A DNA stretch of 3,995 nucleotides from a plasmid, in assembly GCF_055900595.2 (NCBI RefSeq), contig NZ_JBVWEU010000011.1. One strand, written 5' to 3'. Made by a program: the position numbers and the translations under genes. The notes under the pieces are model-generated. The model saw nothing but the letters and a program-made list of their open reading frames with translations. It did no database searches and was not told the origin of the DNA. Positions within the stretch are counted from its first letter, which is position 1. The number at the start of each line of letters is the position of its first letter. Positions 751 to 1,134 of this stretch are shown piece by piece.

Positions 751-1134
751 TTACCCCCCAAAAATATTAAATGCCTTTTGCATTCCTCTAACATTTGAAT
801 ATTCAAAATGTTTAATAATGCACTCTGCTAAAATTAATTTTTCCTTGTCACTCAATTCATTTATTTTTTTAAAAACAAGGTTCTCATCCGTGTTAATGTC
901 TTTAATGCCTTCTGTTACCTTATCCTCGACAAGAGAACTAATTGCCGAGCTAAGGTAATACTCTAACCTTTCAAAATCTTTATGCCCGTTATCAGCAAAG
1001 AACTTTTTGTTTTTTATTATTTGCCCCGTAATAACATGCCCATGCTCTATTAATATGCTTTCAGATGCCTCTAATATGTATTTAAAAACACTTTCGATTT
1101 TTGCACCTTCTGCCTCTGTTATAAGTTTATTCAT
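751..1134 (-). CDS. Hypothetical protein, 127 aa, mildly acidic, no recognisable motif; first gene of the oriT-proximal minus-strand operon
   Basis: ATG at 1134..1132 preceded by a canonical AGGAGG (1145..1140) with a 5-nt spacer. Stop TAA at 753..751, immediately followed by the mobC start. Very AT-rich (about 23% GC in a sampled 60-nt stretch). No catalytic motif, signal peptide or transmembrane segment evident by eye. Confidence 0.6.
   Translation of the reverse strand: MNKLITEAEGAKIESVFKYILEASESILIEHGHVITGQIIKNKKFFADNGHKDFERLEYYLSSAISSLVEDKVTEGIKDINTDENLVFKKINELSDKEKLILAECIIKHFEYSNVRGMQKAFNIFGG

Follow-up and report, generated by a model that had tools for sequence, protein, structure and literature searches.

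The gene at positions 751–1134 (minus strand) very probably is a functional, protein-coding cargo gene that occupies a dedicated, recombination-prone slot in the operon adjacent to oriT, and its family is tied specifically to mobilization modules. The explanation that we favour, although tentatively, is that this gene is exchangeable cargo that acts on host or helper factors during establishment and is no core part of the relaxosome.

The window, which is the whole stretch of DNA analysed (3995 bp), is one entire small plasmid (~4 kb, mobilizable, MOBQ) of the kind found in Klebsiella and other Enterobacteriaceae. Its full-length identity is 99.9% to 3998-bp Klebsiella pneumoniae plasmids that are typed as mobilizable, MOBQ, in PLSDB. 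The sole differences from these reference plasmids are three 1-nt deletions, all in homopolymer runs, at 274 (G6 to G5), 2781 (T8 to T7) and 3616 (A7 to A6). None of them lies within 751–1134, and the coding region of the slot gene shows no change. The deletion at 3616 breaks the 285-aa ColE2-type rep into two ORFs (3107–3640 and 3655–3960); this split probably reflects a sequencing error rather than a true pseudogene. The features around oriT are the following:

434–451, no strand assigned, G+C-rich hairpin between an A-run and a T-run, read by eye
463–747, minus strand, traD/mobC-type relaxosome accessory gene, 94 aa, second cistron (Pfam TraD PF06412, 1.7e-10; RefSeq TraD)
751–1134 including the stop codon, minus strand, slot gene (cassette A), 127 aa, ATG start, from the ORF listing
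1140–1145, minus strand, Shine-Dalgarno sequence AGGAGG, 5 nt before the ATG at 1134–1132
1164–1192, minus strand, promoter-like block (TTGACT, 17 nt, TAATAA), invariant among aligned relatives
1288–1302, minus strand, predicted nick region 5'-GTAAGTGGG/CATTAC-3', with the nick (slash) predicted between 1294 and 1293
1303–1318, no strand assigned, oriT hairpin (ACGTCGC, TT, GCGACGT), read from the sequence
1378–2571, plus strand, MobQ relaxase gene, divergent from the slot-traD operon (NCBIfam MobQ NF041496, 2.1e-68, 230 bits, cut-off 200)

The N-terminus of the relaxase matches TraA_Ti (5.7e-53). Towards its C-terminus, MobQ has a low-complexity stretch rich in Gly, Thr and Ser, TGTGTGTGGNNGGGKMGSGSG (window 2400–2470, plus strand), and the C-terminal third of the protein is the portion that diverges among MobQ types. 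An 87-aa helix-turn-helix ORF on the plus strand (3957–3995 into 1–225) spans the window start and overlaps the rep stop; its label differs by source (“hypothetical”, “plasmid replication protein” or “response regulator transcription factor”). A weak match to a CopA-like antisense RNA at 3028–3118 on the minus strand (27.7 bits, E 0.057, under the gathering score) is found immediately upstream of the rep start and overlapping it, a position compatible with antisense RNA control of rep. In ColE2-type plasmids, rep is under antisense RNA control. By its base composition, the slot gene does not stand out as foreign; the entire plasmid is AT-rich.

The original prediction that an extra cistron stands between oriT and a mobC-type gene was confirmed. 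In the IncQ1 plasmid on which our RSF1010-type comparison was made, mobC begins 57 nt past the oriT core and no gene intervenes, whereas in the window a replaceable 384-nt gene with its own strong ribosome-binding site heads the operon. The label mobC for the second cistron is fair, since its 94-aa product shows 38% identity over 40 aa to RSF1010 MobC (E 3e-6). The ribosome-binding site of the slot gene, AGGAGG, is indeed the best among the genes of the plasmid (mobQ, AAGGGG; traD, GGGGGG; rep, AAGGA). The TAA stop of the slot gene (753–751) is separated by 3 nt from the next ATG at 747, and in sister plasmids an ATGA overlap replaces this gap, which makes translational coupling of the slot gene to traD/mobC plausible. 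The promoter-like block probably drives both genes, with a weak −10 element. Neither the 9 aligned plasmids nor 9 further contigs show any change in the sequence TGACTAAAGTAAATAA.GGAGGTA. At the other end of the operon, the hairpin at 434–451 looks like a bidirectional terminator that closes it. A consensus promoter/terminator scan called neither element; hence the promoter-like block is proposed from conservation and inspection, and the terminator-like hairpin from inspection only.

The slot gene is present in 18 PLSDB plasmids, with a protein identity of 93–100%, and comparison with diverged copies (dS up to 0.35) yields a dN/dS of 0.07–0.13. These 18 are among 53 plasmids that have the same backbone; the remaining plasmids hold other genes at this position. 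Four cassette types, whose mutual similarity is undetectable, were found at the slot:

Cassette A, a 127/129-aa protein
Cassette B, a 54-aa CxxC...CxxC protein and a 126/129-aa acidic protein
Cassette C, an 83-aa Cys-rich protein and a 107–111-aa acidic protein
Cassette D, a 109-aa acidic protein and a 94-aa protein

Each cassette encodes at least one acidic protein of 107–130 aa, and cassette A is the least acidic (net charge −4). The BLASTN breakpoints are sharp. Homology to the window ends at ~747–754, at the traD start, and returns at ~1126–1138, within the first codons and the ribosome-binding site. What is swapped among sister plasmids is therefore the coding body only, while the promoter-like block, the ribosome-binding site, the first codons and traD are constant; the GGAGG of the ribosome-binding site is invariant over all four cassette types. 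When the conserved block was used as a probe, nine additional metagenome and genome contigs were recovered, which again carried cassettes A–D and in which the first ATG consistently lies 56–57 nt into the block. At all 23 loci that have the same promoter block, the slot is occupied.

The other slot proteins that were searched (four against Pfam; six cassette B–D proteins against NCBIfam, PHROGs and PADLOC) gave no family match. A BLASTP match (E 0.027) suggested that cassette A might be remotely related to the 109-aa protein of cassette D, an idea that was rejected after profile comparison (hhalign probability 0.8%). In cassettes B and C, the first gene encodes a small Cys-rich protein and the second an acidic one of ~110–129 aa. 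These Cys-rich genes are the following:

Locus L002, 982–1146, minus strand, cassette B, 54 aa, CxxC...CxxC
Locus L009, 1995–2246, minus strand, cassette C, 83 aa, CCKC...CCVC

From their sequences, the two small proteins look like zinc-ribbon partners; their zinc-ribbon matches are sub-threshold only. Two further copies of cassette A have an unusual context. A copy of the small plasmid is integrated in a 128-kb IncFII/IncR conjugative Klebsiella plasmid (NZ_KP008371.1, 72131–76131), and the integration junction falls within rep, which is annotated there as two fragments. In the metagenome contig OGVK01001270.1, DNA that looks chromosomal adjoins cassette A, traD and the helix-turn-helix ORF, and neither mobQ nor the oriT hairpin is present; this arrangement is either an integrated fragment or a misassembly.

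To characterize the slot protein, we compared its sequence with several collections. The protein has a pI of 5.6, a net charge of −4 and a GRAVY of −0.24, and its sequence shows no hydrophobic run of the length needed for a signal peptide or a membrane segment, in agreement with the earlier description of a mildly acidic protein that lacks both. That description also held that the protein contains no recognizable motif, and none of the searches gave a usable match. Zero Pfam-A families were matched, even at E≤10, including the TraC-like family PF07820, and neither PHROGs nor the PDB sequences (searched with the single sequence or a profile) returned anything. The sole NCBIfam match was an irrelevant ABC-F model (15.5 bits, cut-off 750), with no MobB or other curated accessory protein, and the sole PADLOC match was Cas6 (13.7 bits, E 0.009), with no defence-protein family. 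A search of 5.8 billion proteins returned the slot protein itself and fragments and nothing more, and exhaustive phmmer against 1.84 billion cluster representatives added one further distant protein. A profile search then defined a second clade of 120–128 aa proteins with 34–41% identity to the slot protein (by alignment and local BLASTP). The motifs LEY-LS-AIS-L and LAE-I--FEY are common to both. The second-clade homologue P0011 likewise had no match in NCBIfam or PADLOC.

AlphaFold prediction from the single sequence was poor (pLDDT 53). With the two-clade alignment, the predicted structure reached a pLDDT of 85.8 and a pTM of 0.80 and is all-alpha, with eight helices; the model thus confidently predicts a compact, all-helical fold. 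A Foldseek comparison of this model with AFDB50 returned only the slot protein itself and one uncharacterised 114-aa Salmonella protein, and comparison with viral structures gave no match, so that the model has no informative structural neighbour. The slot protein has no fold or profile similarity to ribbon-helix-helix accessory proteins (NikA, MbeC and MobC; PF05713, PF21983), in which two helices come after a beta strand at the N-terminus. Descent from a MobC/NikA-type accessory protein, hinted at by BLASTP in a two-helix part of a NikA-like MobC, was rejected (hhalign probability 1%). Homology to a MobB-type accessory protein, which would have undercut the proposed novelty of the gene, was looked for together with TraC and ribbon-helix-helix proteins, and since none was found the claim of novelty stands.

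The second clade resides in chromosomal integrative mobilizable elements of E. coli. There, AlpA is followed by an opposite-strand gene for a 234-aa protein whose N-terminus is hydrophobic, then by the homologue, a NikA-like MobC of 123 aa, a PF03432 relaxase of 492 aa and, again on the opposite strand, an integrase. The homologue therefore heads a mobilization operon in these elements too, with an unrelated accessory protein and a relaxase of a different family. The slot of this second module, located between a conserved oriT-like block and mobC, is also variable (loci L016–L029, which are E. coli integrative elements and 4.4–4.9-kb ColE2-type plasmids). Its occupants other than the homologue are acidic proteins of family E (77–97 aa, with the motifs LARxFYYI and CYFVAxRYI), small membrane proteins and a 72-aa protein. 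What stays constant in this module is the oriT-like block together with the ribosome-binding site and the four initial codons (ATGAATGAGAAT). Fixed expression signals and a swapped gene body are thus common to two unrelated mobilization modules. Among 5.8 billion proteins, no member of the family was found beyond the heads of mobilization operons in these two modules. Homologues scattered in non-mobile chromosomal contexts, which would have refuted the original interpretation, were not found; the only homologues elsewhere head a mobilization operon within mobile elements, and the survey of neighbourhoods beside relaxase and oriT confirmed the link to mobilization and, in addition, uncovered the slot with its four interchangeable cassettes.

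These results bear on whether the slot gene has a function of its own. The strongest ribosome-binding site of the plasmid is followed by a traD site that is weak and lies 3 nt downstream of, or overlaps, the slot gene, and any of four unrelated ORFs seems sufficient at this position. Both observations would suit a leader cistron that merely loads ribosomes for coupled traD translation, or a neutral filler. We consider this very unlikely, however, because the dN/dS of 0.07–0.13 shows that the amino-acid sequence is under selection, the fold is compact and predicted with confidence, and a homologue with 34–41% identity in another element retains both length and motifs. Thus, we conclude that the slot ORF is a real gene, in which purifying selection acts on a small soluble helical protein.

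We then examined how the cassettes are distributed relative to oriT and the relaxase. The window and its relatives (L009–L013) have three types of oriT hairpin, whose arms are fully compensatory: ACGTCGC/GCGACGT (type 1), ACACTCG/CGAGTGT (type 2) and ACATTGC/GCAATGT (type 3). Because the relaxase recognizes oriT, the hairpin type is expected to follow the MobQ type, and this is what was seen, with one MobQ type per hairpin type (about 100%, 60–79% and 72% identity to the MobQ of the window, respectively). The cassettes behave differently. Cassettes A and C each occur with types 1 and 2, cassette D with types 2 and 3, and cassette B with type 1. In the sequences compared, the cassette type is thus independent of the relaxase and of the oriT hairpin. 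A sequence-specific partner in the relaxosome should co-vary with the hairpin, which the slot genes do not.

The same distribution weighs on the proposal that the slot protein is a donor-side transfer accessory, that is, a non-DNA-specific relaxosome helper, a regulator or an adaptor to the coupling proteins of helper plasmids, with each cassette matching particular helpers. The slot family is constantly co-transcribed with a relaxosome accessory gene in two unrelated modules, the slot gene lies near or overlaps the traD start, and the consistent occupancy of the slot at 23 loci would also suit a transfer function that is needed. The layout of Ti plasmids points the same way. In these plasmids, a small traC is located between oriT and traD. 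The Dtr region of Ti plasmids (traA, oriT, traC-traD-traG) shares with the window the TraA_Ti-like relaxase N-terminus, the TraD-family second cistron and a small gene in the interval from oriT to traD, so that the slot gene holds the traC position. However, the slot protein has no TraC-like match and, unlike a conserved relaxosome subunit, gives way to unrelated genes in sister plasmids. The cassette type is uncoupled from both hairpin and relaxase type, the four cassettes have no detectable similarity, TraC, MobB and ribbon-helix-helix proteins are not matched (hhalign against MobC, 1%), and RSF1010 and MOBQ4 modules have no such gene. Overall, we regard a donor-side accessory as rather unlikely. 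Were it correct, MOBQ relaxosomes would tolerate interchangeable, unrelated auxiliary subunits.

The comparison with these two modules is informative for the cargo reading as well. As in RSF1010/R1162 (IncQ1, MOBQ1), a relaxase with a MobQ/MobA N-terminal domain and a MobC-type gene diverge around oriT in the window. MOBQ4 plasmids, which have been studied more closely than any other small cryptic MOBQ plasmids of enterobacteria, resemble the window in being small, cryptic, enterobacterial and of ColE2 or Rep_3 type, with mobA and mobC divergent around a 178-bp oriT and one hypothetical gene besides (Garcillan-Barcia et al. 2019, PMC6856555). In MOBQ4, mobC abuts oriT and is non-essential, and its product was reported to have no homology to other accessory proteins (PMC6856555). 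The window differs in that its accessory protein is TraD/RSF1010-MobC-like and a slot gene stands ahead of the accessory gene. The fact that the accessory gene lies directly at oriT, without a slot gene, in both RSF1010 and MOBQ4 (PMC6856555) counts in favour of cargo, as does the finding that homologues lead a second mobilization module, unrelated to the first, whose slot is variable too.

The position of the nick determines which genes enter the recipient first. The sequence TAAGTGGGCATTA adjoins the hairpin and is invariant in every relative, and on the sense strand of the slot gene and traD the region reads hairpin-(G/A)TAAGTGGGCATTA; the minus-strand core around the predicted nick is TAAGTGGG/CATTAC. 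In conjugation, the nick is located on the 3' side of the hairpin, and the relaxase departs with the DNA 3' of the nick (PMC4814116). In the IncQ1 (RSF1010-type) plasmid, the strand with mobC in sense reads hairpin-TAAGTGCG/CCCT ahead of mobC, so that the geometry of a hairpin, a TAAGTG-type nick core and an accessory gene in sense is the same in both. By this analogy, the predicted nick falls on the minus strand between 1294 and 1293, at a distance of 159 nt upstream of the ATG, and the slot gene would then enter the recipient first. The opposite flank of the hairpin (GGGCCCTGCGGGGC) is conserved too and the hairpin is palindromic; hence, the nick is assigned by analogy with RSF1010. The rule of Samuel et al., by which the side opposite the relaxase is the leading side (PMC11541004), would place the slot gene on the leading side, as would the RSF1010 analogy, subject to the palindromic hairpin and its conserved other flank.

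Anti-defence genes are enriched in leading regions adjoining oriT, including those of mobilizable elements (PMC11541004). The window shares with such anti-defence islands (Samuel et al. 2024, PMC11541004) a variable region in which the first ORF on the non-relaxase side of oriT encodes a small, acidic, uncharacterised protein. It differs from them in that its plasmid has only 4 kb and the slot, inside the accessory operon, takes a single gene. Classic leading-region genes are marked by early transcription from single-stranded DNA (PMC11541004). With the predicted nick, however, the transferred strand is the sense strand of the slot gene, so that no transcription from the incoming single-stranded DNA would occur; the gene would have neither the template-strand orientation of leading-region genes (PMC11541004) nor the single-strand promoter geometry of the islands. 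This sense-strand transfer weakens a simple picture of an early leading-region gene, and so does the co-transcription of the homologue with the relaxase in the integrative elements. A relaxase gene is usually the last to enter the recipient, and if this rule holds, the homologue in the second module enters last. On a 4-kb plasmid, first and last entry should differ only briefly, and an unrepressed oriT promoter in the new host is probably more relevant. Neither in sequence nor in fold does the slot protein resemble characterised anti-defence proteins (ArdA, ArdB/KlcA, Ocr and anti-CRISPRs). The original remark was that positions close to oriT often carry early-expressed genes for anti-restriction, anti-defence or establishment functions; the slot gene does lie on the predicted leading side, and no sequence or fold match supports an anti-restriction or anti-defence activity.

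Our favoured explanation combines these observations as follows. The slot gene would be exchangeable cargo at the front of the accessory operon that adjoins oriT in a small, RSF1010-like mobilizable plasmid. With the nick ~160 nt upstream and the sense strand transferred, it would be the first gene into the recipient. Once the complementary strand is made, a burst of slot-gene expression from the oriT promoter may follow and last until relaxosome proteins repress this promoter. In RSF1010, MobC and MobA repress the oriT promoter, and the same repression is assumed here from RSF1010. The strong ribosome-binding site would suit a protein required in quantity. Like an anti-defence protein, the slot protein may bind and block a factor of the host or of a helper plasmid by which establishment or transfer is limited, and the four cassettes would be alternative answers to one problem. 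Several observations favour a role in helping establishment or transfer: the slot behaves as a hotspot and varies independently of the relaxase type, the slot gene has a strong translation signal and would lie on the leading side, and anti-defence genes are known to be enriched beside oriT (PMC11541004). On the other hand, the lack of similarity to anti-restriction, anti-CRISPR and other anti-defence proteins counts against the proposed mechanism, as does a net charge of only −4, unlike that of DNA mimics.

The cargo could also be unrelated to the transfer step and serve interference with related plasmids, co-resident or incoming, immunity or exclusion, or host benefit, with the mobilization operon simply offering, on a plasmid of 4 kb, the only site that is strongly expressed and tolerates recombination. 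The slot gene is the sole accessory gene of a plasmid whose remainder is rep and mob, its site is a diversity hotspot with unrelated cassettes, and the slot of the second module includes genes for small membrane proteins; in addition, related plasmids with cross-recognised oriTs coexist and compete (PMC6856555). Nevertheless, the confinement of the family to the heads of mobilization operons in two unrelated modules, as found among 5.8 billion proteins, counts against such cargo. Defence families are unmatched, and a type II toxin-antitoxin module is not indicated, as cassette A is a single gene, hence no toxin-antitoxin pair, and the cassette proteins match no family. We consider this alternative unlikely.

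Variable cargo proximal to oriT is already known; here, it is embedded as a single-gene slot inside an accessory operon. What may be new, in a broader formulation that is possible but on the doubtful side, is a plug-in slot between oriT and the accessory gene that is shared by small mobilizable plasmids and integrative mobilizable elements of Enterobacteriaceae. In this formulation, a fixed promoter, ribosome-binding site and first codons would serve exchanged families A–E, including Cys-rich, zinc-ribbon-like partners, and the 127-aa protein would found a new fold family, with the task of disabling a defence of the recipient or of manipulating the transfer machinery of helpers. If the slot proteins aid establishment or exploit helper plasmids, several new protein families would be added to the repertoire of anti-defence or transfer manipulation. 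The conserved flanks provide an easy handle to mine further cassettes, and the 4-kb plasmid provides a simple swap system. Small plasmids of this ~4-kb kind are frequent in clinical isolates of Klebsiella, Enterobacter, Citrobacter and E. coli, yet they are usually written off as cryptic; under the same condition, the slot proteins would account for the persistence and spread of such plasmids.
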